The position numbers were made by a program, and so were the translations under genes. Positions 91 to 28,985 of a DNA stretch of 64,000 nucleotides are shown piece after piece (position 1 is the stretch's first letter; each line of letters opens with the position of its first letter). The DNA is from a virus. A model generated the notes under the pieces. It did not search any database. It worked only from the letters and a program-made list of their open reading frames with translations, and was not told where the DNA came from. The stretch lies in IMG/VR virus record IMGVR_UViG_3300029566_000004. One strand, given 5' to 3'.

Positions 91-642
91 TTATCCAGAA
101 GTGATACAATTGCGCATTTGTTGTTCCATATCGGCAATTATTTCATCTAATGATATCGGCTTGCAATCATGTGCATCTACCGATACATTATATACATATG
201 GCAAATCATTATAGAATTTGCGTTTGTCATGTGTATGGCCCGAAAGATTGAGCGTCATCTGCTTAAGTGATTCACGCTCAAGGTTGCCTGTCATACAAGG
301 GTAATGGGTCATGAAAAAGTGATGTTTATTATACTTGAGCTTAATCGCAAGCGCAACTTCAACCACATTCGGGCAAGTGCGGTAAAGCGCTTCGCGTGTA
401 TCAGTATCATGATTACCTAAAACAATATGTACTCGGCAAGGAATTTGCAGAAGATATTCCAATCCCTTCTGGTTATCTCCAAGCATTACATCGCCGAGAA
501 TATAAAGATCATCATCGGGTTGAAGTTGAAGCAGATTATGAAGAATAACCCCATTCATTTCTTCTACGTTATTAAAACCACGTGGTTCATATAAAAATGC
601 GCGGTCATGATTAAAATGGAGGTCAGAAGTTACATAAATCAT
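91..642 (-). CDS. calcineurin-like metallophosphoesterase
   Basis: 183-aa ORF; MPP motifs SDLHFNH, GDVMLGD, GNHDTD, GHTH. Confidence 0.8.
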   Translation of the reverse strand: MIYVTSDLHFNHDRAFLYEPRGFNNVEEMNGVILHNLLQLQPDDDLYILGDVMLGDNQKGLEYLLQIPCRVHIVLGNHDTDTREALYRTCPNVVEVALAIKLKYNKHHFFMTHYPCMTGNLERESLKQMTLNLSGHTHDKRKFYNDLPYVYNVSVDAHDCKPISLDEIIADMEQQMRNCITSG

Positions 643-664: not shown

Positions 665-1219
665 TTAATACACTTTATTTTCATAAGGCGATTCTAAATA
701 TAAAACCTTTACTGATATTTTCGTATCATTTTCTGGACGTTCAAATGAATTCCACATACGAGTAACAATATCATCTGGTACAATAGCATGGTAAGCGCGC
801 TGATGATTACGCTTTATCGTTTCTTTTAACGAGGCTCTGATAACAAGCACCGTTACTTCAACATTGGACAAATCCAAACGCTTTAACACTTTTAAACGAG
901 ATTTTTCAGTTAAATGAGTTGCATCAGCATATATACGAGTAGGCCCTTTGGCATCATTCAGATAATTCTGAATAGTTTCAATAAATTCATTGAAAACTTC
1001 GGTTTCATGAGTAAAATAATGGTCGTCTTTAGACTGCATATAGCTAAAGCGAATTTCATCGCGAGATACTACAGCGCAATCAGAACCGATAGCATTTGCT
1101 CGCAACCAGGTGCTTTTCCCAGAGCCAGGAGCGCCGCACATCAAGAAAAGCTGTTTCTTTTCAGGCTCTTTATTAATCTCCACAGGTTTTTTTGATTTCT
1201 TAAAAAGATTAAATTCCAT
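665..1219 (-). CDS. P-loop kinase, polynucleotide 5'-kinase-like
   Basis: 184-aa ORF with Walker A GAPGSGKST; lies between two phosphoesterases and downstream of an RNA ligase. Confidence 0.6.
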   Translation of the reverse strand: MEFNLFKKSKKPVEINKEPEKKQLFLMCGAPGSGKSTWLRANAIGSDCAVVSRDEIRFSYMQSKDDHYFTHETEVFNEFIETIQNYLNDAKGPTRIYADATHLTEKSRLKVLKRLDLSNVEVTVLVIRASLKETIKRNHQRAYHAIVPDDIVTRMWNSFERPENDTKISVKVLYLESPYENKVY

Positions 1220-1946
1220 AGATATTTCCTTTCACACGGTCATAAAACGGTATATGCTCACAAGTGTCTAAATTTAATAGTATCGCTCCACCAGACCAAA
1301 AAGAACCATTATCGATATCGATTTTATGGTCATCACCATATATAAGCAGAGTAGGCTCATGCGGCACATCCATATGTAACTCATCGACTACAAAAGGAAT
1401 TGGAGTATGACCATGGACGCATACTTCATCGGGTCGCTCACCGTTATCTTCTGGCACAATCACCTTATCACGAAAATGATTTCTGTCCCAAATTAAATCT
1501 TCACGGATAGGCAAATCTTTACGATATGGAGTATATCCCGCATGCGATAAATGCCAAATTGTGTTATTTTTTTCACTAAAATAATCCATATGTATAGGCA
1601 GTGTGCGCAAACGATCCAACCATACTTTGCGCTCTTCTGGGGTCTCTTTTAACCAGCCCCTATATGTATCATAGCCGTCATTCACTATTACTAATTCAAG
1701 AGATTCATTGAAAGGATAGCCAGCAAGACACTCTTCCATGGCATTTATAAGCATATCTTCATGATTGCCCATCAGATAGATAAACTGCGGATTAGTGTAT
1801 ACAGCTTTGATTAATTCCCAGTTCTTATAACCACGATCGCCGCAATCGCCTAAACAAATTACTTTATCTTCTGGTTTAATATAATCGAGAATTTGCTCAT
1901 AAATATCATACATACCGTGTAGATCTGAACACACATACATCGACAT
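1209..1946 (-). CDS. lambda-phosphatase/ApaH-like metallophosphoesterase
   Basis: 245-aa ORF; motifs SDLHG, GDCGDRG, GNHE, HGHT; RBS and promoter upstream. Confidence 0.8.
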   Translation of the reverse strand: MSMYVCSDLHGMYDIYEQILDYIKPEDKVICLGDCGDRGYKNWELIKAVYTNPQFIYLMGNHEDMLINAMEECLAGYPFNESLELVIVNDGYDTYRGWLKETPEERKVWLDRLRTLPIHMDYFSEKNNTIWHLSHAGYTPYRKDLPIREDLIWDRNHFRDKVIVPEDNGERPDEVCVHGHTPIPFVVDELHMDVPHEPTLLIYGDDHKIDIDNGSFWSGGAILLNLDTCEHIPFYDRVKGNIYGI

Positions 1947-1977
1947 GTTAAATTTCTCCTTTTATTTTTCTATATAT

Positions 1978-2006
1978 ATTATAACAAATTTTTTTATAAA
2001 AATCAA
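1978..2006 (-). promoter_or_regulatory. class-1 promoter TTGATT-N17-TATAAT
   Basis: Minus strand: TTGATT at 2006-2001, 17-nt spacer, TATAAT at 1983-1978; member of a motif repeated about 18 times. Confidence 0.7.
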
Positions 2007-2028
2007 AGGCGGCTGTTATGCCGCCTTT
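2005..2028 (-). terminator. intrinsic terminator hairpin
   Basis: AAAGGCGGC-TGTTAT-GCCGCCTTT followed by a T run in the minus sense, directly after the stop at 2032. Confidence 0.6.
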
Positions 2029-2031
2029 TTC

Positions 2032-2205
2032 TCAATCCTTTTTCTTATTATCTAGCAGAAGTGAAATGTTTAAGCCGCAGCATTTATATTCTGAATTATA
2101 TAGCATACATTTCTCTTCAAAACATTCTTCGACCTTTTCGTTACCAGTAAAGGGATCTGTACGAGAACGCAATGGACAAAGTTTTATTTCTACAAGTCTA
2201 CCCAT
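2032..2205 (-). CDS. small Cys-rich protein
   Basis: ORF track 2032-2250 trimmed to the ATG at 2205, which has a GAGG RBS; the longer form overlaps the upstream gene. Confidence 0.45.
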   Translation of the reverse strand: MGRLVEIKLCPLRSRTDPFTGNEKVEECFEEKCMLYNSEYKCCGLNISLLLDNKKKD

Positions 2206-2212
2206 ATATACC

Positions 2213-3643
2213 TCACATTTCTGATGCGATATCTGCATCGGCAACATCAATTGCCTCTTCAGTTATAATACCAGATAAACACTTAAATGTGAAATTCTTG
2301 TGTTTATAGGCAGTAAATGAAGGACGATTTACAATACGGACCACTACACCTTCGCGCACATGGGTTTTACCTATTGGGTCTGGACCGTCGCAGTAAGTTT
2401 CAGCAGCTTCCATTACCCATTCTCCGGGAGTTTTAGTAACATAATCAATAATTCCTTCACTATTTAGATATAGAATATTGCGGTCATTACTATCTGGAAT
2501 GCGGAGCTGCTCAAACACAGGAACAGTTTTACAACCCATTTGCTCACAACGATAACGCATATAGTCAGGAGTATATTCTACGACATTGCCATCCTCATTA
2601 GTCATAGTCATACGATATACATAGAAATCAGACTGAGACACAGGCTCTGGGATGCTAAATACACTGATTTCATCACGATAGAATTTTTTGCGCTGACCAG
2701 TTGGCTCACAGCCATATGAGAATACAGTAGTAGGACCATACTGACGCTCAAATTCTTTATCGTTTAACTTTTTATTACTTACTGATCCCATAATAGGCGC
2801 ACCAGAAGTAGTAAAACCAACAACTTCGTAGAATACTTCTTCACCCTTATGAAGTTTGCCTTCGAAGAACTTTGCGTGTGGCTCACGGAATTCATTAGAG
2901 CCATAGAAACCGCCATCGAAATTGTCAAGTACAGTACGACGAGTACCAGTTACATAACCCCAATCATAAATTGGCTTGCCGGGACGACGGAATAGTTTGT
3001 CCCAAAAAGTGCGCTTCATACCCTTAAACACTGGCAGATAACCGGTGCGCTGAGAGGTGCCATGCAATTTGAGTGTAATCTCAATCTCGTCACCAGGCTT
3101 AAAAGCGTTAAGATTATACGCAAGTTGTTCAGTATCGGCGTGCTCGTTAAATAAAGGCGCAATAGGTATATTCTTAGGCTTATTCTTACGAGTGCGGTTT
3201 GGGCTATTAAATTCATTATGAGCCTTTACCTTAGGAATATATTTATCACAAATCCCGTGGCCATTAAGCTCATGGATAACAGCGCCTTCAGTTAAGAGAG
3301 ACATATCTACACCAGTATATGCTACTGAGTCAAGAGCCATAAAGATACCATCAGAAGGTTCTCCGCGCAAACGAATAGTCTTGATGTTGCGCTTATCAGG
3401 CTCAAGATATCCACCAACATTTTTACCAGTTTCATCCTTGCGACGTACAAGATTATTCTGTGCGCAAAACTCTTCGCTTAACTGAAGCCCAGATGGGAAA
3501 TAAATACCCATATCACCAAGTTTTACATCCAGACCAACGCAAGTTTCACAGTCAAAGAACTTAGCGATTTGTAACTTATTGGCGTTCATATGTGGACGCA
3601 ACTCTTTTACTTTCACTACATAACCACAGTGAGTAATACTCAT
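2213..3643 (-). CDS. RNA ligase (Rnl2/DraRnl-like nucleotidyltransferase)
   Basis: Motif I KLHGTS resembles T4 Rnl2 KIHGTN; later EGVVVRI and YKHKNF motifs; start trimmed to ATG 3643 with RBS AAAGGAG. Confidence 0.7.
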   Translation of the reverse strand: MSITHCGYVVKVKELRPHMNANKLQIAKFFDCETCVGLDVKLGDMGIYFPSGLQLSEEFCAQNNLVRRKDETGKNVGGYLEPDKRNIKTIRLRGEPSDGIFMALDSVAYTGVDMSLLTEGAVIHELNGHGICDKYIPKVKAHNEFNSPNRTRKNKPKNIPIAPLFNEHADTEQLAYNLNAFKPGDEIEITLKLHGTSQRTGYLPVFKGMKRTFWDKLFRRPGKPIYDWGYVTGTRRTVLDNFDGGFYGSNEFREPHAKFFEGKLHKGEEVFYEVVGFTTSGAPIMGSVSNKKLNDKEFERQYGPTTVFSYGCEPTGQRKKFYRDEISVFSIPEPVSQSDFYVYRMTMTNEDGNVVEYTPDYMRYRCEQMGCKTVPVFEQLRIPDSNDRNILYLNSEGIIDYVTKTPGEWVMEAAETYCDGPDPIGKTHVREGVVVRIVNRPSFTAYKHKNFTFKCLSGIITEEAIDVADADIASEM

Positions 3644-4515
3644 TTTATATCTCCTTTCTGAACAACAGTCCAATTTAAATTTTGATAAGTCAATTTATTC
3701 ATATCTGACCAAATAATTTTTTTTGCAAGTGCTTTGTTGTCACGCTTATACTTAGGCATTGTTTTACGAATATGATTACACAGCCAATCACAAGCCTCTG
3801 TAAAAGTATTAAAACTATGTTTAAGTGCTTTAGTATCAGCATCATAAGCATATATGCATTCAGTATTATTGATAATTGCTTTGCGTGCTTTAGGATCAAG
3901 GCCCAAACGTGTAACTGCGGGCTTTGTTCCTTTCGCTACGAGTGCAGATTTATTTATTTCTGTTTTAGGCTCATAGTCCGGGAAAGGATGACCTTTTACC
4001 GTACCTCCTTGGTTCACCTCATCAAAAACAATTTTGAGAAATTCGGCATCTTCAAGAGCATTATGCGTCTGAACGAATTCCTCTTTTTTATAATAATTTA
4101 CAACTTTAATAAGAGCAATTTCTTTAATTAATCCAAAATGATTTTTAACAGTAGGAGCATAATTCACAAGGTTAGCCGCAATCAAAGAAAGTGACATTTG
4201 TGCGGTTATGCTAGTAGCTTTTTTAATTGCTTTACGCACAAATGTTAAATCTGTATTGCCATAACAGAAAAAGCGGCAAGGTGTGCCATCATTATGTTCT
4301 AATACCCAATAGAAAAAATGAGTAAATACATCATCTAAACTGGGCGCCGCTTTATTCATTCCATCAGTAATACCAGTTAAATTAGTAATAAAAGAAGTAA
4401 TTTTCTTATCGGTATAAACCATACTGGAAAATTTTGCATCTGTCTCACTAACGCAACCAATTGAAATAATTTCATTGGAAAATTGTGTTGCTTCAAAGTC
4501 AATAAAATAATTCAT
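3640..4515 (-). CDS. DnaQ-like DEDDh 3'-5' exonuclease
   Basis: N-terminal FIDFEAT (Exo I) and HNALEDAEF (Exo III, DEDDh) motifs. Confidence 0.7.
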   Translation of the reverse strand: MNYFIDFEATQFSNEIISIGCVSETDAKFSSMVYTDKKITSFITNLTGITDGMNKAAPSLDDVFTHFFYWVLEHNDGTPCRFFCYGNTDLTFVRKAIKKATSITAQMSLSLIAANLVNYAPTVKNHFGLIKEIALIKVVNYYKKEEFVQTHNALEDAEFLKIVFDEVNQGGTVKGHPFPDYEPKTEINKSALVAKGTKPAVTRLGLDPKARKAIINNTECIYAYDADTKALKHSFNTFTEACDWLCNHIRKTMPKYKRDNKALAKKIIWSDMNKLTYQNLNWTVVQKGDIK

Positions 4516-5507: not shown

Positions 5508-6345
5508 TCATGTACAGAGCATACATGGAGCAAGATTACGCCCAGTATTTAATATCTGCGTTTTATTATATTCACGCCAACGTTTAGCAATATTTTCAAT
5601 ATTTTCTATATCATAATAGAAATACTCAAAATGCAGATCTTCAATACGATCAATGTGATAATGACCCATAAGCCAAGCATATCTAATTTTGATTTTATGG
5701 CGTAATTCCTCGAGCCATTTTTCCATAGTAGTATCAACTTCACTTTGTTCAATAAAGCTAAGGAATTTATCGAAGGGGCGCATAGTAAAAGGTGCAGTAT
5801 GAGACATTACAAAATCAAATTCTGGAGAAGTTTCAAATAGCAGCTCTGCGTCTTTCATCTCTTCTGGAGTTAATTGCTCATCAGAGAACCAACCACTTAT
5901 TTTTGGATCATTATTTCCCTCGCACAAGCCAGCTCTTGCGAGACGATACCATTTATCTACAGAATAAGCACCACCAATTATTGCAACACGATAGCCGCCA
6001 ATCATATATATGCCATAGTCAAGAAAATATCGAATGCGAGGATATTTTGGCTCCATATAAATCCAATTTTGGACATTCTCGTCATAGATTTTTTGCATCC
6101 CATTAATGGATTGCGGTCTTGCTTCATGATTGCCACGTAGACAGTAATAATAACATTGCGTAGTATTTATAATAATTTCCTTGGTATCTACATCGCGTTT
6201 GTTGAGATAATAATTGAATCCTACATCACCCAATATGATTACTGCGGCCTCGTCGTCGAACACGCATGGCACACTTTGCATTGCATAAAGGCTACCATGA
6301 ACATCGCTAACCCATAACAAACCATTTTTTTAGTTTGTTACTCAT
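5508..6345 (-). CDS. metallophosphoesterase with an apparent frameshift at an A7 run near the start
   Basis: Motifs SDVHG, GDVG, GNHE, GHYH. The RBS-linked ATG at 6345 is one frame off the body; the two frames meet at the homopolymer 6325-6331. Confidence 0.6.
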
Positions 6346-15434: not shown

Positions 15435-16964
15435 TTATTTAATTCGTGTATACATTTCTCCGTCGAGAACATCAAGCATAAGCTCAAACGCAGTTTTACC
15501 TTTCATAATCTGCTCAAATAGTACAGGACTGAAGCCGCTAACGAAGGTGATACCATCTTTTACAGTCATAGGAATATTATTCTGACGAGCTTGCACATTC
15601 CAAAAGATGAGATTAGGCATCTTTAGACCCCATGCACGCCATTTATCAGCAATATGTTCCATGAGAGCACCACTATTATTATCACTCCATAGACGCGCAG
15701 CATCAAATTCCATATCTGAGATGATGATTATATTCTGAGGAATATCTTCCTTCTTCACATCAGGACGAAGTGCTATTTTAAGAAGAAGATCAAAAGTAGC
15801 TTCAATATCAGTGTTTTCACAAAGATTAGTACGGTAAATACGTGCAACCTTATCACAGAAGTCAACACCTTCAGTAGCTATCCACTGAGGACGACTAGAG
15901 AAGCTAATGTAATGTCCTGCAAAAGGTCCTTTGTTGTGTTCGGCGCAATAAAGACCAAGAGAAATAGCAACATTAATAGGTGCAGATGCCTCACTGCCCC
16001 TCATAGAACCAGAAGTATCAACAACTGCAATGCCATTAAAGGTTGCGCCTTTAAAGTAATCAGTCAAATTCTCCCAATATTTATTAACTGCCAGACGATT
16101 TATATCATCAAGAGCAGGCTCAAAGTCACTACCAAAGTCACTACACCAACCTAAACTTTTCCGCATAACATTTGTGGCGGCTGCAACGCATTCATAAGGA
16201 TGAAGCGCCTTAGCATTAACCTTAGTTTTAGTATCCTTCATGAAGTCTTCATAAGTGGTTTTGCCGATTTTCTGACGTTCAATATCGTGACGAGCAAAAG
16301 CATTGCGATAAATCATACCGGCGCGAGAAGGAATTTTGTCAAATTCAATTTCATTCCAACGTTTTGCAGACATCAGTCTTTCAAGAACACGAATACGTTC
16401 ACGAAGGCTAGAAAGTGCTTTACGATACTCACGAGAAGTAAGATTAAACTTTTGGCGAGTAAGGGTTGCAAGCTGACGGCTCTCATGGCTAGAAGTATTT
16501 TCAGATTTAAGCCATTTAGCAAGCAAAGAGGGGGTCTTGCTCTTAAGATCAAGAACAAGCTGTTGCTTCATCAGGTAGAACATCTTATCCTCAACAGGAG
16601 TTCCTACAAGAGCATAAAGATCGTCCCAGCGACCATAAAAAGGAATGTTCTCAAGATTACGAATTACATCTTCAGGATGATTTTTTGCAAGCCAGTTAAG
16701 GACAACGCGGAAGTAACGACGCTCACCCTGGCCACCGCGTACGGAGCGCAAATAAAAAAGGCACTTAAGCGCACGAAGCGCATCTTCTTCATAAGCCTTC
16801 TTAAAGAGCAGAATGCAATCTGCGTTGGAGCGGGTACGGTACGCGCCACCGAGTGCAAACATATCAAGTAGACCGCTCATAGTAGACTTGTGAGTCAGAG
16901 CACCATTCTCGGTAACAGCATAGTTGTTCGCGTTATTCATTACGTTCATAAAAGTATTAGCCAT
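15435..16964 (-). CDS. helical-domain plus vWA protein (DUF2828-like, Ro60/TROVE-like architecture)
   Basis: 509 aa; N-terminus TENGALTHKST..LLDMFA.GGA.R; C-terminal MIDAS VVDTSGSM. The family name comes from memory of similar phage proteins. Confidence 0.6.
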   Translation of the reverse strand: MANTFMNVMNNANNYAVTENGALTHKSTMSGLLDMFALGGAYRTRSNADCILLFKKAYEEDALRALKCLFYLRSVRGGQGERRYFRVVLNWLAKNHPEDVIRNLENIPFYGRWDDLYALVGTPVEDKMFYLMKQQLVLDLKSKTPSLLAKWLKSENTSSHESRQLATLTRQKFNLTSREYRKALSSLRERIRVLERLMSAKRWNEIEFDKIPSRAGMIYRNAFARHDIERQKIGKTTYEDFMKDTKTKVNAKALHPYECVAAATNVMRKSLGWCSDFGSDFEPALDDINRLAVNKYWENLTDYFKGATFNGIAVVDTSGSMRGSEASAPINVAISLGLYCAEHNKGPFAGHYISFSSRPQWIATEGVDFCDKVARIYRTNLCENTDIEATFDLLLKIALRPDVKKEDIPQNIIIISDMEFDAARLWSDNNSGALMEHIADKWRAWGLKMPNLIFWNVQARQNNIPMTVKDGITFVSGFSPVLFEQIMKGKTAFELMLDVLDGEMYTRIK

Positions 16965-20610: not shown

Positions 20611-20684
20611 TGGTGCGGGGCTGCGGATTTGAACCGCTTTTTCAGCTTTTTAAAGCTGAGGGTATACCTTTAGCCTAACCCCGC
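20611..20684 (-). tRNA. tRNA-like gene with a non-canonical anticodon loop (UUUAAAAA)
   Basis: Good acceptor stem, T-arm and CCA. The anticodon stem CAGC/GCUG encloses 8 nt (6 nt if the U:A pair closes); a 7-nt loop is not possible. Confidence 0.5.
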
Positions 20685-20805
20685 AATATAAAACAAAACG
20701 TATTTTTCTTCACTCACTCAAAATAATTCATTTATTGCTACATACGTTTTTATATGGTGCGGATGGAGGGATTCGAACCCTCAAGGATTTCTCCCGACGG
20801 ATTTT

Positions 20806-21540
20806 CTTACTACTCTATGTTACCATAGCCGCATTATTGCGTTGTAGTCTGGATCATGTCTTCTCCATATCTTTCGACTTAGGAGGCTGGTGTATGATCT
20901 CTACACATTTACAATCTAAATGATTGATTTAGCTCGGCGTTATCCCAGTAGGACTTTCGCCGAATTAGCCAGCATTCACTCAGAAGATTTCTCACTCTGG
21001 TGCTCTATTTGCAGAAATAGTATTTTTTCTTCTACGCCAATTTGGAGTATAAGAATGACAGTTTGGACATAATAATTGAAGATTTTCTAAACGATTGTCT
21101 GTCCTATCTCCATTAATATGATGGATTTCAAGAGTAATTGGTTGTCCTAACCACTCTGTTAATCCACAGCATTCACATTTACGTCCTCTCAATTTAATTA
21201 AAGGATTTAATGTTGTGCTGCCATTCTTTTTAATTGAATTTACTGTAAATAATGTGTAATCATAATTCTCATGATTCCATGCTTGTCCTAAAAAATGTGA
21301 GGTATCAAGTTGAAGTTCTTGACACATTTTATTTAATGAAGTTAATGCTCCGCCACTGTCTCTTGCATATCCAAGGGCTATTGCAACTTCACGCATAGAC
21401 TACGCATTTTTTACAATTTCTTCAATTTGTTCTTTTGAAAAAGATTTCCATTTTGGTTCTCTTGCCATAATATAGACCTCCTTTTTTCTTGTCTATTTAT
21501 TATGGCAGAGGCGATAGATATTTTAATCTACTCTGCCCAA
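20806..21540 (-). mobile_element. group-I-like intron carrying an HNH endonuclease ORF
   Basis: Exon ends in U. A possible P1 pairs exon ACUU with intron GAGU (U.G at the splice site). The intron ends in G. About 258 nt lie outside the ORF. Confidence 0.6.
20992..21468 (-). CDS. HNH homing endonuclease (1 in-frame TAG)
   Basis: CECCG...EIHHINGDRTDNRLENLQLLCPNCH. Strong RBS before ATG 21468; TAG at 21402-21400 is in frame with track ORF 20992-21396. Confidence 0.8.
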
Positions 21541-21608
21541 AAGTCCGTTGTGTATGCCATTCCACCACATCCGCACAGTAAGTTTTCATTTCTTTTTCTT
21601 ACATATAT

Positions 21609-21769: not shown

Positions 21770-21858
21770 TGGCTGGGGTGGAGGGATTCGAACCCCCATC
21801 TTTCGCCTCAGAAGCCCGGCATTTAGAGTGCCGTGTGTTGCCATTACACCACACCCCA
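21770..21858 (-). tRNA. amber suppressor tRNA(CUA), tRNA-Gln-like acceptor, 19-nt variable region
   Basis: Loop CUCUAAA; U1:A72, G2:C71, G3:C70, G73 and CCA as in E. coli tRNA-Gln; variable region GGCUUCUGAGGCGAAAGAU. Confidence 0.8.
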
Positions 21859-22688: not shown

Positions 22689-22777
22689 AAGACGATTGAA
22701 ATTTATAGGAATCGAACCTACTCAAACAAGGATACAGCCTGTTTTTAAACCATATATAAAATTGCAGAAATCGTCTT
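22689..22777 (-). ncRNA. tRNA-like / Y-RNA-like structured RNA
   Basis: 8-bp terminal stem AAGACGAU/AUCGUCUU encloses a canonical T-arm UAGGUUCGAUUCCUA and extra hairpins. Not a cloverleaf. Lies directly downstream of promoter 22796-22824. Confidence 0.35.
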
Positions 22778-24411: not shown

Positions 24412-24488
24412 TGGTCGGGGTGGAGGGATTCGAACCCCCGACTTTCTGCTCCCAAAGCAGACGGACTACCAAACTGTCCTACACCCCG
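24412..24488 (-). tRNA. tRNA-Pro(UGG)
   Basis: Cloverleaf, loop UUUGGGA, CCA. Confidence 0.85.
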
Positions 24489-24491
24489 AAA

Positions 24492-24568
24492 TGGCGGTAC
24501 CAAGGGGATTTGAACCCCTGTCTCCGGCGTGACAGGCCGGCATTCTAGGCCAACTGAACTATGGAACC
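24492..24568 (-). tRNA. tRNA-Asp(GUC)
   Basis: Cloverleaf, loop CUGUCAC, G73, CCA. Confidence 0.85.
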
Positions 24569-24895
24569 ATAAAGAAAGGAGAATAGAGAGAAGAAAGAAG
24601 AAAAATGTGATGAAAAATTAAAGAAATCACATTTCCAGAGCTAAAAGACTCTCTCTATGAGGATAGTCTTTTCTTTCTGCGGCAAGCAATATATTCAGGA
24701 TTTTAACCTGCAGCCCAAAGTTCAATAGTATGTTTATTAAGCACTCAATAAACAAAATACAAGAAGGATCCAAAATAATTAACTTTGGGATTTCCGTCGC
24801 AGGCCTTTATAAAAGCTTGTCAGGGAAAATTATCTTAATGACAATAATTTTATTTTTTATTAATTATAAGCTATTCACTCATTTTTTACAATATA

Positions 24896-24924
24896 ATTAT
24901 ATCATAAATTTTTTGAAAAATCAA
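24896..24924 (-). promoter_or_regulatory. class-1 promoter TTGATT-N17-TATAAT with no ORF or tRNA for about 300 nt downstream
   Basis: Minus strand: TTGATT 24924-24919, TATAAT 24901-24896. The downstream stretch 24890-24570 has only hairpins. Confidence 0.55.
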
Positions 24925-25004
24925 TGGAGCATTCGGTTGGATTCGAACCAACGACATATACGGAGGTTGCAGCTCCGCCTCTTAAGCCACTTGAGTACGA
25001 ATGC
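24925..25004 (-). tRNA. tRNA-Cys(GCA)
   Basis: Cloverleaf, loop CUGCAAC, 8-nt variable region, CCA. Confidence 0.75.
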
Positions 25005-25238
25005 ATAAAAGGCAAAAGACGCATAGGGTCTACCTTGGTCTTTCGAAACTTTTTCTACACATGGTAGATAAGCAAAACTAGACACTTGGATTTTTTCAGA
25101 ATGTAGCGAAAAAAATTCTAAAATTTGCTGTGCGTGTCTAAATTTGGTGGGAATGCCTTACGAGATATATATTGCAATACGGTTTAACTTTTGCATGCCG
25201 TAGCACGTGATACTGACATATAAGTTTCTCTCGCTCCT

Positions 25239-25313
25239 TGGTACCTCGAGGTGGATTTGAACCACCGACTTCCGGAATATGAGTCCGTCGTTCTACCGCT
25301 GAACTATCGAGGC
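25239..25313 (-). tRNA. tRNA-Met(CAU), elongator or Ile2 type
   Basis: Cloverleaf, loop CUCAUAU, G1.U72, CCA. Confidence 0.8.
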
Positions 25314-25478
25314 ATATATAACTAAGTTTTGCTTTCGTTGTCTTTTTATTTTTGTGTGCTGCTAAATGACAATGCCACATATGGATTATATCCCCGGTGG
25401 TAGTTGAAACTTAGAAAATCCATCCTTTCCGCACACTTTGGCGCTCCCGGTAGGACTTGAACCTACGACGCGGTGGTT

Positions 25479-25946
25479 GCTTACACATCAGCTTACCAAT
25501 TCTTTACTACTTCCTCCAATTCATAATTTTTCGCCCAAGTAATACCTCTTACTTGACCATTTTTTGTAGGAAGAATACGAAGTCTTTTATCTGCTCCGCA
25601 CTCCTCAACTGGAACTAAATAACATTTTCCATTAAAAGTAGTTACGAAGTAATCAATTTCCTCGTTTGAGTATGTATGATGCACAATCTTACCATCTTTT
25701 CTATTACAACTTCTACAAGAAAATTTGAATGATGCACCATCATCTTCGGTATTTGATGTTTTAGCTTGAACTCGAATAAACTTTCCATTAACATCTACTA
25801 CAAAGTCATATCTCTCACAATCTCCATATGGAGTTAAAACATTATAACCAAGTTTTAGAAATGCTAACATTGTTTCAAGTTCTGTAATATTTCCTTTTTG
25901 TTTACTATTCATTTATCTTTTCATAAAGAATAGATAAGGTCAGGTA
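25479..25946 (-). mobile_element. intervening sequence that is almost entirely a PD-(D/E)XK endonuclease ORF
   Basis: Only 34 nt upstream and about 14 nt downstream of ORF 25493-25912 lie outside coding sequence. Confidence 0.6.
25493..25912 (-). CDS. PD-(D/E)XK homing endonuclease, I-Ssp6803I-like
   Basis: 139 aa; GNITE...LGYNVLTPYGD.ERYDFVVD....IRVQAKT matches the D...(E/Q)xK core of intron-associated PD-(D/E)XK nucleases (family recalled from memory). Confidence 0.6.
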   Translation of the reverse strand: MNSKQKGNITELETMLAFLKLGYNVLTPYGDCERYDFVVDVNGKFIRVQAKTSNTEDDGASFKFSCRSCNRKDGKIVHHTYSNEEIDYFVTTFNGKCYLVPVEECGADKRLRILPTKNGQVRGITWAKNYELEEVVKNW

Positions 25947-25988
25947 AACAGCCACCTGCTCTGCCAGCTGAGCTACAGGAGCATATAT

Positions 25989-26065
25989 TGGCGGTACCAA
26001 GGGGATTTGAACCCCTGTCTTCGGCGTGACGGACCGACATTCTAGGCCAACTGAACTATGGAACC
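25989..26065 (-). tRNA. tRNA-Asp(GUC), second copy with C33
   Basis: Near-duplicate of 24492-24568, but the loop is CCGUCAC (C at the universally conserved U33 position). Confidence 0.75.
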
Positions 26066-26223
26066 ATTCGTGATTACGCCGCAAGTTCGCGTCACTTGCT
26101 TTTACGGAGGGCGTAGGCTCCGCCTCAAATCTGGTGCTTATGAGGATATCACCCGGACGCCGTAGCGCCACTTTAAAGTTGCCTTAATTTAACGAGCTGG
26201 TCGAGCTCTTAAAAACTAGTCCC

Positions 26224-26295
26224 ATTTTAAGATTGGAGTCGAACCAATGACCTTCAGTTTTGCAGACTGATGCTCTACCTCTGAGCTACTCTCCC
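26224..26295 (-). pseudogene. tRNA-Cys(GCA)-like gene with a broken acceptor stem
   Basis: D, anticodon (CUGCAAA) and T arms are intact, but 5' GGGAGAG cannot pair with 3' CUUAAAA. Confidence 0.45.
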
Positions 26296-26332
26296 AATAT
26301 GCGGAAGCAAGATTGCTGTATAGGACTATAAA

Positions 26333-26408
26333 TGGTAGCGTCATGGGGATTCGAACCCCAGTTGCTGGATTGAAAGCCCAGTCTCCTAACCAATTAGAGG
26401 ATGGCGCC
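26333..26408 (-). tRNA. tRNA-Glu(UUC)
   Basis: Cloverleaf with 3-bp D stem, loop CUUUCAA, CCA. Confidence 0.8.
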
Positions 26409-26414
26409 AAGTTA

Positions 26415-26681
26415 TTAATTCATTGGGAGAAGAACTTTCCATGCGCCATTAGGCTGCATTTCCATTCGCCACCAAGAATCATTTTTAAGCAGATATACTG
26501 CAGTATCAGTATATTTATCAATAAATGCCTGCCGCAAATTTTCTGCTGCATCGAGGTCTTTTACAGGCCCCAGAAATTTCCCTTGAACAGGAGGAATATC
26601 CTCATACATGTTTTTAAATGTCTTTTCTACATAAACGGTATCAATAGGATAATGTTTGCGACATACAACATAAAATTTCAT
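26415..26681 (-). CDS. hypothetical protein
   Basis: Track ORF trimmed to ATG 26681 with RBS AAAGGAGAG. Confidence 0.55.
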   Translation of the reverse strand: MKFYVVCRKHYPIDTVYVEKTFKNMYEDIPPVQGKFLGPVKDLDAAENLRQAFIDKYTDTAVYLLKNDSWWRMEMQPNGAWKVLLPMN

Positions 26682-26885
26682 AGATATCTCTCCTTTGGAT
26701 TTATTTAATGAAGGGTGGAATTCAAACCCTCGCGCTATTATATAGCTTCTTTTCTTTAACGACAACAAGTAAGCTAAATGTCGCTGGTCTTACATCATTT
26801 ATTTAACGTCGCTGTTGGATGGCAGCAAACCTGCGACGAAAAGAATGCTTTGTTTTATGGTATAGAACCATAATATTGGTTTAGT

Positions 26886-26956
26886 TGCTCAAAATAGGAT
26901 TTGAACCTATATCTAACGATATATAGAATCGCTGCTTTGCTATTAAGCTATTGAGC
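26886..26956 (-). tRNA. tRNA-Ile(UAU)-like, C33
   Basis: Short cloverleaf, loop UCUAUAU, no encoded CCA. Confidence 0.6.
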
Positions 26957-27368
26957 ATCATGACCTTCGCCTCTAAAACCTTTTACGGCAAACTCAGCAA
27001 AGGATAAAGTTTTTCAAAGAGCCGCCAAACTCTTCTATTCTCAGCGCTCATCATTTAGACAATCAAGTATTGGCGCACTATCCAGTCATCTTAGAGCAAG
27101 TTTTTCACCGCTTCGTATTTGTTCACCTTGGAACGCCTGCCAGCATTTTATGCCAGCAGCCTGCCGGGGGTCGAACCCGCTATACGAGCAGCTTCATTTT
27201 TGAGAATAAGGTTATATGTAATTACTAGCAAACCTTTGGAAACCAGCTTAGCATGAGTTTATTGACATCTCTAAGGGTGGTCATTGGTCGCAACCAAAAT
27301 TTTTAGTTCCGTCGTTAGTTTAAACAGAGCATACCATCGTGAAGGTGTACGGTAACATTTTATGCTCC

Positions 27369-27441
27369 TTGCGGGGGTGGGACTCGAACCCACAACCTTC
27401 AGATTATGAGACTGACAAGCTACCTATTGCTATACCCCGCG
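27369..27441 (-). tRNA. initiator-type tRNA-fMet(CAU)
   Basis: Starts CGCGGGG and ends CCCCGCAA as E. coli tRNA-fMet does (C1.A72 mismatch); loop CUCAUAA. Confidence 0.8.
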
Positions 27442-27513
27442 ACGTAAAGGCAGTTTAAAGAGACGTGCCTAGGTCTCACAAGAAAGGAAAGATACATAAC
27501 GGTTTCGCACCGC

Positions 27514-28314: not shown

Positions 28315-28387
28315 TGGCGCCACGAGGATTCGAACCCACGATTACCAGATTGAGAAACTGGTTGCCTAGCCATTAGCAGATGGCGTC
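28315..28387 (-). tRNA. tRNA-Glu(CUC), second copy
   Basis: Loop UUCUCAA; imperfect T stem (bulged U) and an A2.C71 mismatch. Confidence 0.6.
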
Positions 28388-28823: not shown

Positions 28824-28871
28824 TAACATACTCCTTTGATTAAATTTACAAGACACTTTTTTGTTATTATT

Positions 28872-28935
28872 ACTCTGCCAACTGAGCTACCAGTCCAAAT
28901 GAACTGGATAGGATTCAAACCTGCGGCAACGAGAA
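28872..28935 (-). other. permuted tRNA halves (3' half, then 4-nt linker, then 5' half) in a 5' leader
   Basis: The minus strand reads a T-arm plus CCAGUUC, then AUUU, then GGACUGG UA GCUC AGUUGGCA GAG. The two acceptor strands are complementary. Confidence 0.4.
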
Positions 28936-28985
28936 ATAATTTAATCTTATTTGCTGTTAGTGTCTTTCCTTTTTCTTACATATAT

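Follow-up and report, generated by a model that had tools for sequence, protein, structure and literature searches.

The stretch of viral DNA analyzed here, IMG/VR virus record IMGVR_UViG_3300029566_000004 (64,000 nucleotides (nt), hereafter the window), carries on its minus strand a tRNA-Asn(GUU) gene (25982..25439) that is split between nt 36 and 37, within the anticodon loop, by a 468-nt insert consisting almost entirely of a homing-endonuclease open reading frame (ORF). The element belongs to a widespread family of mobile inserts in the tRNA genes of bacteriophages that had not been described before; literature searches returned no description of it. The two ends of the insert pair with each other and with the anticodon, forming an RNA rod that is conserved across the family. 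The insert may be a mobile tRNA intron devoid of a ribozyme, which would be cut by a protein at two junctions embedded in a helix and sealed by an RNA ligase of the phage.

The split tRNA-Asn gene and its mobile insert

A tRNA array of the phage type occupies about 20.2-28.6 kb of the minus strand. ARAGORN reports 25 tRNAs there, including a CUA suppressor and two tRNA-Asp, and tRNA-Asn is absent from its calls. On direct reading, the 5' half (25982..25947) is GCUCCUG-UA-GCUC..GAGC-A-GGUGG-CUGUU and the 3' half (25478..25439) is AA-CCACC-GCGUC-GUAGG-UUCAAGU-CCUAC-CGGGAGC-G-CCA. When introns are allowed, ARAGORN returns a call spanning exactly 25982..25439 with a 468-nt intron, and the exons joined in silico are called tRNA-Asn(gtt). 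No Asn tRNA other than the split one is seen in the window array, and the same holds for nearly all Asn-type loci of the family. The non-coding part of the insert amounts to about 48 nt, of which 34 precede the ORF and 14 follow it. The original prediction, made from the sequence of the window, had described a tRNA split in the anticodon loop by an insert that is almost all ORF, and every number in that description proved accurate on direct reading and in the ARAGORN intron mode.

Mapping the junction against intronless homologues, a check that the original prediction had called for, places it at 36|37. Enterococcus phage EFP01, an isolated phage, harbors the same ORF (59% amino acid and 70% nt identity) at the same site of a tRNA-Asn-like gene, and about 29 other Schiekvirus genomes, with flanks 98-99% identical to those of EFP01, have an annotated uninterrupted tRNA-Asn(gtt). 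The intronless allele of these siblings is exactly CTGTT|AACC, i.e., CTGTTAACC, and the CCS1 allele, ...GACTGGCTGTT|AACCAGT..., corresponds to the EFP01 5' half fused precisely to the EFP01 3' half. Since the intronless allele equals the joined halves, the insert separates U36 from A37 and has C as its last nt, and GUU is the anticodon. A junction following group I rules, CUGU|CAA with a GUC (Asp) anticodon, had also been envisaged and is refuted by the same siblings, on whose evidence the CUGU|...G|CAA (Asp) junction preferred by ARAGORN in intron mode was likewise rejected. This mode sets the junction one nt too far 5' in these loci, most of which it labels tRNA-Asp(gtc), and default tRNA finders miss the intron-bearing tRNA genes of this family altogether. 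At the homologous position, two phages nearly identical to that of the window (97-99% identity in the flanks) carry tRNA-Asn intact. Neither the intronless allele nor the 3' flank of the window turned up in exact-match scans; close relatives of the window phage were reached via a neighbouring protein.

The ORF product belongs to the I-Ssp6803I family (PF11645) of PD-(D/E)XK endonucleases, as had been proposed beforehand. It matches Pfam PDDEXK_5 with E=5.9e-32 and 111 bits (cutoff 26.1) and the protein of PDB entry 2OST (I-Ssp6803I) with E=3.7e-9, and the catalytic residues D31, D36, Q49 and K51 are invariant among 18 divergent homologues. The tRNA-splicing endonucleases have the same fold but a different, Tyr-His-Lys site (PMC3424549). 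An EndA-like site of this kind was looked for in the 18 homologues and rejected, as they share no invariant His and His78 and His79 vary. An AlphaFold (AF2) model of the endonuclease, with a predicted local distance difference test score (pLDDT) of 49.9, was too poor for a fold search. In public data, the protein forms 647 clusters at 90% identity.

The family was collected by a protein-guided scan of IMG/VR followed by a scan of GTDB genomes. Thirty-one loci from IMG/VR and nine from contigs of metagenome-assembled genomes (MAGs) are alike in layout, those derived from GTDB lying on large MAG contigs of Bacillota and Bacteroidales that are phage-like in appearance. In 38 loci, the ORF can be found inside a tRNA anticodon loop, always at 36|37, preceded by 14-35 nt and followed by 0-17 nt of non-coding sequence. 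Spliced in silico, all 38 yield canonical tRNAs of eight species, namely Asn-GUU (24 loci), Ile-GAU (6), Ala-UGC (2) and one each of Lys-UUU, Ile-UAU, Thr-AGU, Asp-GUC and a UUA suppressor; the joined product of L019, a duplicated variant, is miscalled Ala-ggc. Canonical tRNAs from the 36|37 joining of 38 related loci put the split tRNA far beyond chance. In L030 (IMG/VR 7000000052_000049), where the intron lies in the UUA-anticodon (ochre suppressor) tRNA, the UAA stop codon of the endonuclease ORF is made of the last three intron nt, paired with the tRNA's own UUA anticodon. No ORF-less mini-intron was found in a pattern scan of viral contigs, and a short-intron scan with ARAGORN returned only false positives, from tRNAs with long variable arms. 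Contigs of about 500 nt in ENA were suspected to be circles; L098, the one that was read, proved to be an ordinary piece of genome flanked by exon sequence.

The insert is mobile, as shown by polymorphism in its presence at a fixed site and by its being more conserved than its surroundings. The window intron is 95% identical to that of L005, with exons 74% identical and flanks at the level of unrelated sequence. Among about 30 Schiekviruses, EFP01 is the one carrier. Three occupancy states are found among phages with 97-99% identical flanks (compared over window 24450..27500): the window has the intron in tRNA-Asn; L181 (IMG/VR 3300045988_166184) has a related 467-nt intron at 36|37 of tRNA-Asp(GUC) together with an intact tRNA-Asn; and L180 (IMG/VR 3300045988_165556) has no such intron and harbors a free-standing GIY-YIG gene between Asp and Asn. 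The Asn exons of the window diverge from those of its relatives up to 25469, inside the 3' exon, where identity to L180 resumes, a pattern that fits the exon co-conversion expected during homing. More distant homologues of the endonuclease are free-standing genes in tRNA arrays (My1, Kuttervirus). Three free-standing homologues lie directly beside an intact tRNA-Asn (in L040, L047 and the haloarchaeal virus HSTV-4), and the tie of this endonuclease lineage to tRNA-Asn therefore appears old. Regarding the tRNA-Asp genes, the intact copies (window 25989..26065 and 24492..24568 (-); L180 3203..3278) have C33 for the near-universal U33, in a loop CCGUCAC, and the intron-bearing Asp allele of L181 has U33; C33 is also present in the Asn gene of L007. 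The C33 tRNA-Asp may be an endonuclease-resistant allele.

The end-to-end RNA rod

The rod consists of helix A, an internal loop and helix B; it extends the anticodon stem and has the ORF as its terminal loop (Table 1). In helix A, across the family, anticodon nt 34-36 and the first intron nt pair with the last 6-10 intron nt, and the helix stacks on the U33-A37 pair and the anticodon stem. In 32 distinct loci, the paired fraction of the helix A cells is 95.8%; column shuffles give 64.1%, with none of 500 reaching the observed value, and slid partners give 35-43%. Double-sided changes can be found at 11 of the 12 pairs. The last three intron nt follow the anticodon (AGC with GUU, AAA with UUU, AUC with GAU, GCA or GUA with UGC, GGC with GUC, AUU with AGU, UAA with UUA and AUA with UAU), pairs 34:-1, 35:-2 and 36:-3 being kept through eight anticodons. 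A pairing between GUUUACC and GGUAAGC had been noted in the original prediction, in the wrong register: it is the terminal GUAAGC (25484..25479) that pairs here and covaries, while the upstream copy forms helix B with the 5' untranslated region (UTR).

Helix B pairs this 5' UTR with the end of the coding sequence. In RNAduplex, cognate partners reach a mean of -13.0 kcal/mol versus -7.1 for non-cognate ones, and the cognate partner ranked first or second of the 30 tested in 24 of 30 loci. Compensatory changes can be seen by eye when AUUCUUUA/UAAAGAAU of the window is set beside AUUUUCUUA/UAAGAAAAU of L009, ACUCUUUA/UAAAGAGU of L013 and CCAAUUCUUAA/UUAAGAAUUGG of L021. The same rod is found in the minimum free energy (MFE) folds of mini pre-tRNAs of 12 out of 12 loci, the window construct has a z score of -3.96, and the MFE fold of the full 544-nt precursor retains the cloverleaf arms and helix A. 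Intron-borne copies have a mean z score of -3.0, whereas free-standing homologues, which show no end-to-end pairing, give +0.7, +0.7, +0.7, -1.0 and -1.4. Since the free-standing homologues lack the pairing, the rod is tied to life inside a tRNA and not to expression of the endonuclease as such.

The internal loop differs between two subgroups. In Asn/Lys-type introns, CUGA faces UGAUG, with which it could form C-G, U.U, G.A and A.G pairs; the Ile/Ala/Asp/Thr group has a small A/AC loop, and UGAUG, being absent there, is not universal. A likeness to the kink-turn (K-turn) of box C/D RNAs was seen by eye only, in a loop of 1+2 nt and not 0+3 whose motif is missing in the Ile/Ala/Asp/Thr subgroup. 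Two further readings were rejected: a hammerhead reading of CUGAUG, as the junction is two-way and not three-way, no GAA element is present and the motif is absent in half of the family; and mimicry by the RNA of the right half-site of the DNA target, as the intron-side arm is unlike the half-site across the family.

Regarding geometry, the 3' junction (C-1|A37) lies at the base of helix A and the 5' junction (U36|U+1) three base pairs (bp) in, so that a cut at each would turn the anticodon triplet into a 3' overhang of 3 nt, about a pseudo-dyad that passes through pair 35:-2. Considering that the two junctions are related by pseudo-twofold symmetry, this suggests a dimeric protein. Pair 35:-2 itself (25948 with 25480 in the window) is G.U, U.G or a mismatch in 24 of the 32 loci, including all 20 of the Asn type, and stays non-Watson-Crick though an A would give a Watson-Crick pair.

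G.U pairs are frequent in the rod and A.C nearly absent, and the pairing is therefore strand-specific and operates at the RNA level. This bears on the idea that removal takes place in DNA, where inverted repeats at the ends would form a hairpin or cruciform cut by a resolvase-like PD-(D/E)XK enzyme, some copies being restored. Such a route is very improbable: although the Holliday-junction resolvase Hjc is the closest structural relative of I-Ssp6803I (PMC3384342) and presence/absence polymorphism is rapid, helices rich in G.U and almost free of A.C work on one strand, as RNA and not by extrusion of duplex DNA. Moreover, the arms are about 400 bp apart and interrupted by loops, and the intronless alleles of relatives differ in exon sequence, which fits homing or recombination and not precise excision.

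Intron class, cleavage and sealing

Judged by its sequence, the insert is not a group I, group II or bulge-helix-bulge (BHB) intron. The scan with group I/II covariance models that had been suggested beforehand was run: an Rfam search of the insert and its surroundings (25350..26070, E<=10) gave no group I, group II or small-ribozyme match, and Intron_gpI was also unmatched in a 9-kb scan. As a positive control, the group I core of the tRNA-Leu intron in the same array, 4.5 kb away, was found with 36.1 bits and E=6e-8. By the account of a 2014 review, a group I intron in a phage tRNA gene is itself unusual. Group I introns end in omega-G and have a U.G pair in P1, formed with a 5' guide. Here, the last intron nt in the 32 loci is C (26), A (5) or U (1) and never G, nt 36 is U (28), C (3) or A (1), and the last nt of the exon pair with the 3' end of the intron and not with a 5' guide, in agreement with the earlier remark that no P1-type guide can be found in the 5' end. 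Whereas at least about 200 nt of structured RNA, or a core inside the ORF, would be expected of group I, the 48 non-coding nt leave no such space, and within the ORF the fraction of synonymous differences is flat (0.33-0.52), so that no stretch appears to be under extra constraint at the nucleotide level. With RNAalifold on 16 full-length introns, nothing is retained beyond the end-to-end helix and two tiny hairpins, which are invariant. The features of group II (5' GUGYG, 3' AY and domain V) are likewise absent from an insert that starts with UACCUG, ends with AAGC and has no Rfam match. A BHB motif is made of two 3-nt bulges around a 4-bp helix (PMC4090602); the 32 loci have a continuous helix with junctions 3 bp apart, no BHB register could be drawn for the window sequence on inspection, and no EndA was found among the part of the window's ORFs that was scanned. 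The insert does share with the BHB type the pairing of anticodon and intron and a mature-like pre-tRNA body, the full-length MFE fold keeping the acceptor, D, T and anticodon stems.

Self-splicing, either by a group I-like core hidden in the coding sequence or by a new small ribozyme formed from the rod, is quite improbable in light of these results. ORFs overlapping ribozyme cores are known in organellar group I introns, and folding of the ORF interior in the window copy is moderately more stable than that of shuffled sequences (z=-2.38), but nothing in the ORF interior is conserved, synonymous differences are flat, and the search that detects the tRNA-Leu intron finds no ribozyme. The CUGA/UGAUG loop could be taken for a catalytic element, since it is conserved in the Asn/Lys group, but the loop is wholly different in the other subgroup. 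A terminal nt that is never G, an nt 36 that is C or A in four loci, and the pseudo-twofold symmetry, which suggests a dimeric protein, also speak against self-splicing. The core of the original prediction, that the insert has no room for a ribozyme and is no ordinary group I intron, is supported by the Rfam results, the terminal nt, synonymous variation and RNAalifold, and its option of a ribozyme core embedded in the ORF has become unlikely.

A protein-dependent route, to which about an even chance can be given, would proceed as follows. An endonuclease of the I-Ssp6803I family would target the anticodon stem-loop of a tRNA gene and drive its own gene into 36|37, as family membership and presence/absence polymorphism suggest. 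The pre-tRNA would keep its L-shape, with the rod extending the anticodon stem, and a protein endonuclease would cut both strands of the helix at the two junctions. The resulting nick between U36 and A37 would then be sealed by the RNA-repair ligase of the phage, restoring tRNA-Asn; this role would fall to RtcB in EFP01 and to a kinase, a phosphoesterase and an ATP-dependent ligase in the window phage. Among the options listed in the original prediction was removal by a protein or ligase pathway, and it is this one that best fits the conserved end-to-end rod and the RNA ligases of carrier phages, although cleavage and ligation are steps that we infer.

RNA ligation systems can be found in both phages with enough known genome context, EFP01 and the window phage. 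RtcB is encoded by EFP01 and by every one of its siblings (Pfam E=2.3e-59), with 98.6% identity for the copy in EFP01. No RtcB is found in the window, where adjacent genes for a kinase, a phosphoesterase and an RNA ligase (665..3673), a heal-and-seal cassette for RNA, are candidate sealing machinery for the insert, and relatives of this ligase occur on at least four other intron-bearing contigs, Lys- and Ile-type among them. Two further metallophosphoesterases are present in the window (91..642 and 5508..6320). Anticodon-loop breaks such as a nick at nt 36/37 of a folded tRNA are what these repair enzymes mend. Both ligation systems can take 2',3'-cyclic phosphate/5'-OH ends, and only that of the window could also join 3'-OH/5'-P ends.

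Several points weigh against splicing by protein. RNA ligases are common in phages with tRNA arrays, and hence make sealing feasible but unspecific. A low-power scan of metagenome contigs for circular-intron junctions found none, and no spliced RNA was found. Among the endonucleases of bacteria and phages, none is known to cut a helix of this kind with a stagger of 3 nt. The sole constant companion protein is a predicted metal-dependent DNA nuclease, which would leave 5'-P/3'-OH ends, and these cannot be joined by RtcB, the only ligase that the examined 50 kb of Schiekvirus sequence yielded. A phage can usually do without its tRNAs, so that endonuclease drive could keep an unspliced insertion circulating. 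The integrity of the exons and the compensatory changes in their stems may reflect recent invasion of diverse functional genes, and some exons look damaged (the 5' half of L032, the duplication in L019 and C33 in L007).

It is conceivable, though on the doubtful side, that a selfish endonuclease gene simply breaks up a phage tRNA that can be spared, with no splicing at any time and with a rod that serves the endonuclease mRNA. A tRNA killed by a homing endonuclease was the third option of the original prediction. The rod could join the tRNA halves so that trimming by RNase P and RNase Z gives a stable tRNA-capped mRNA, or it could be an RNase III site; a helix of 25-30 bp would be a plausible substrate for RNase III, but the stagger here is 3 nt versus the 2 nt of that enzyme. 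Very fast turnover (one carrier among about 30 Schiekviruses, and three occupancy states at 97-99% identical flanks) and the damaged exons are consistent with an insertion that is never removed, yet the site is always exactly 36|37, joining gives a canonical tRNA in every case, and the visible array normally has no Asn tRNA besides the interrupted one. Free-standing homologues thrive in tRNA arrays, and these copies have no such stem though they also need to be expressed. Nor would a stabilizing stem need to include the exon anticodon, whose pairs with the last three intron nt are kept through eight anticodons. The view that bacteria have no protein-spliced tRNA introns, and no known splicing endonuclease (Yoshihisa, 2014; PMC4090602), also favors the absence of splicing.

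Regarding the identity of the nuclease in the protein-dependent route, the homing endonuclease itself might cut the RNA helix with the same 3-nt 3' stagger as its DNA cut, the phage ligase then sealing the exons; this is unlikely. I-Ssp6803I is said, in work attributed to Bonocora and Shub from 2001, to cut its DNA target on either side of the anticodon triplet, leaving 3-nt 3' extensions. If these cut sites are correct, the RNA junctions of the insert would copy the DNA cleavage geometry of the endonuclease.

Window context and relation to known systems

Table 1. Features of the split tRNA-Asn locus and of the rest of the window
Feature	Position	Strand	Basis and remarks
AAA_33 P-loop kinase	665..1219	-	Pfam E=1.3e-17
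Metallophosphoesterase	1209..1946	-	Pfam Metallophos E=4.7e-14
RNA ligase	2213..3673	-	PHROG 968 'RNA ligase' E=4.4e-63; Pfam RNA_ligase match weak
RNase_T-family exonuclease	3640..4515	-	Follows the kinase/phosphoesterase/ligase cassette
DUF2828/DUF7788 protein	15435..16964	-	PHROG 850 'RNA-binding protein'; also in Schiekvirus beside the tRNA array
tRNA-Leu(UAA), second interrupted tRNA	20755..21574	-	735-nt group I intron between U34 and A35; Intron_gpI match 20829..21010
HNH endonuclease ORF in tRNA-Leu intron	21468..20992	-	
tRNA-Asn 3' exon	25439..25478	-	nt 37-76: A37 A38, anticodon stem 3' strand, variable loop, T arm, acceptor, G73, encoded CCA
Intervening sequence	25479..25946	-	468 nt, between U36 and A37; start UACCUGACC, end GCUGAUGUGUAAGC
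Helix A 3' strand	25479..25484	-	Last six intron nt GUAAGC; 3' splice site at helix base, by the U33-A37 pair
UGAUG, intron -12..-8	25486..25490	-	Opposite loop side, kept in the Asn/Lys group
Helix B 3' strand	25492..25507	-	Last coding nt, stop codon and one more base, GUAAAGAAU.UGGUAAG
Homing-endonuclease ORF	25493..25912	-	420 nt, 139 amino acids, TAA stop; PD-(D/E)XK, PF11645, I-Ssp6803I family; PHROG 5018
Helix B 5' strand	25923..25938	-	5' UTR, CUUAUC.UAUUCUUUAU, ends 11 nt before the start codon; RNAduplex and MFE folds
CUGA, intron +4..+7	25940..25943	-	Internal-loop side in Asn/Lys-type introns; C+4-G-8 pair becomes A-U in L020
Helix A 5' strand	25944..25949	-	G34 U35 U36 and intron +1..+3 (GUU|UAC); 5' splice site within the helix
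tRNA-Asn(GUU) 5' exon	25947..25982	-	nt 1-36: acceptor, D arm, anticodon stem 5' strand, C32 U33 G34 U35 U36; direct reading and ARAGORN intron mode
YrlA (Y RNA-like) match	28844..28951	-	Weak, 31.6 bits; reads as a circularly permuted tRNA-like element

Elsewhere in the window and its relatives, in-frame TAG codons can be found in the HNH ORF of the window, in the GIY-YIG gene of L180 (3413..4050) and in the PDDEXK ORFs of L025 and L032 (codon 27). The window positions concerned are 21400..21402 (-) and 21770..21858 (-), and a tRNA with a CUA anticodon is present. The phage group of the window appears to read TAG as sense, and several parts of the window that lack long ORFs (about 42.8-45.5, 46.0-47.7 and 60-64 kb) may represent recoded genes. 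The DUF2828 protein and the YrlA-like element may constitute a Ro/Y-RNA-like module; when the DUF2828 protein was searched against PDB sequences, no link to Ro60 emerged. Odd tRNA calls at 20611..20684, 26230..26290, 22697..22765 and 28315..28387 (-) comprise a tRNA with a 4-base anticodon (uaaa), a truncated Rfam tRNA match (model positions 6-65) and two weak matches uncalled by ARAGORN.

Among known systems, the group I intron of tRNA-fMet from Synechocystis PCC 6803, which encodes I-Ssp6803I, is alike in endonuclease family, in its tRNA anticodon stem-loop target and in mobility. It has 655 nt and an ORF of 150 amino acids, leaving about 200 nt for the ribozyme (PMC1995217). The window insert differs in having 468 nt, of which 48 are non-coding, with no core, terminal G or P1-type guide, in that its ends pair with each other and with the anticodon, and in residing in a phage and not in a cyanobacterial chromosome. 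The archaeal and eukaryal tRNA introns (BHB, EndA/Sen, RtcB or Trl1) likewise lie in the anticodon loop just 3' of the anticodon, with pairing between anticodon and intron, a mature-like body with an extended anticodon arm, an available RtcB or heal-and-seal ligase and the possibility of an ORF in the loop. Unlike them, the window insert lies at 36|37 and not at 37|38, has neither bulges nor a 4-bp central helix, and belongs to viruses of bacteria.

The free-standing endonucleases of phage tRNA arrays (T4 SegB and the PDDEXK_5 proteins of My1, Kuttervirus, HSTV-4, L040 and L047) are homologous or analogous and target tRNA genes; they lie between genes and lack end-to-end pairing, whereas here the gene lies inside a tRNA and has a rod. 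Bacterial rRNA intervening sequences are, like the insert, non-ribozyme elements with a long end helix, removed by a host protein, RNase III. However, the rRNA fragments are not re-ligated while a cut tRNA anticodon loop must be, and the stagger differs (3 versus 2 nt). With SOS splicing, by which DNA transposons are removed from animal mRNAs (PMC12779559), the analogy is conceptual only. That process is eukaryotic, acts on mRNA and is a host defence rather than an adaptation encoded by the element. It reportedly uses an RTCB-type ligase.

In the view of textbooks and reviews, the tRNA introns of bacteria are all self-splicing group I introns. The insert shows none of the features that define group I, group II or BHB introns, and despite this it displays strong selection at the RNA level for a structure joining the junctions beside the anticodon. 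All phage introns known by 2014 were in protein-coding genes, despite the many tRNA genes of phages (PMC3984707). A survey of bacterial tRNA introns demands a match to a group I covariance model and would for this reason miss the inserts described here (bioRxiv 10.1101/2020.01.27.920355). Because standard finders miss these tRNAs, or ARAGORN in intron mode labels them Asp, tRNA inventories of gut phages are incomplete, genes of this family being omitted or mislabelled by automated annotation.

What would be new is the splice-site architecture, and the host domain, of an enzymatically removed, endonuclease-carrying tRNA intron. If not spliced, the insert would still represent a new way for a homing-endonuclease gene to persist in a structural RNA gene. 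If it is spliced, phage RtcB and the Pnkp/Rnl-type 'repair' enzymes would have a role in splicing, a new splice-site motif and an endonuclease activity not known before would be involved, and EFP01, which is cultured and has about 29 intronless siblings, would provide a tractable system for the origin of enzymatic tRNA splicing. Should the endonuclease itself cut the RNA, the bacterial world would have its first pathway of tRNA splicing that relies on protein only, and also a living example of how a restriction-fold nuclease could turn into an endonuclease that splices tRNA, the route by which EndA is believed to have arisen.

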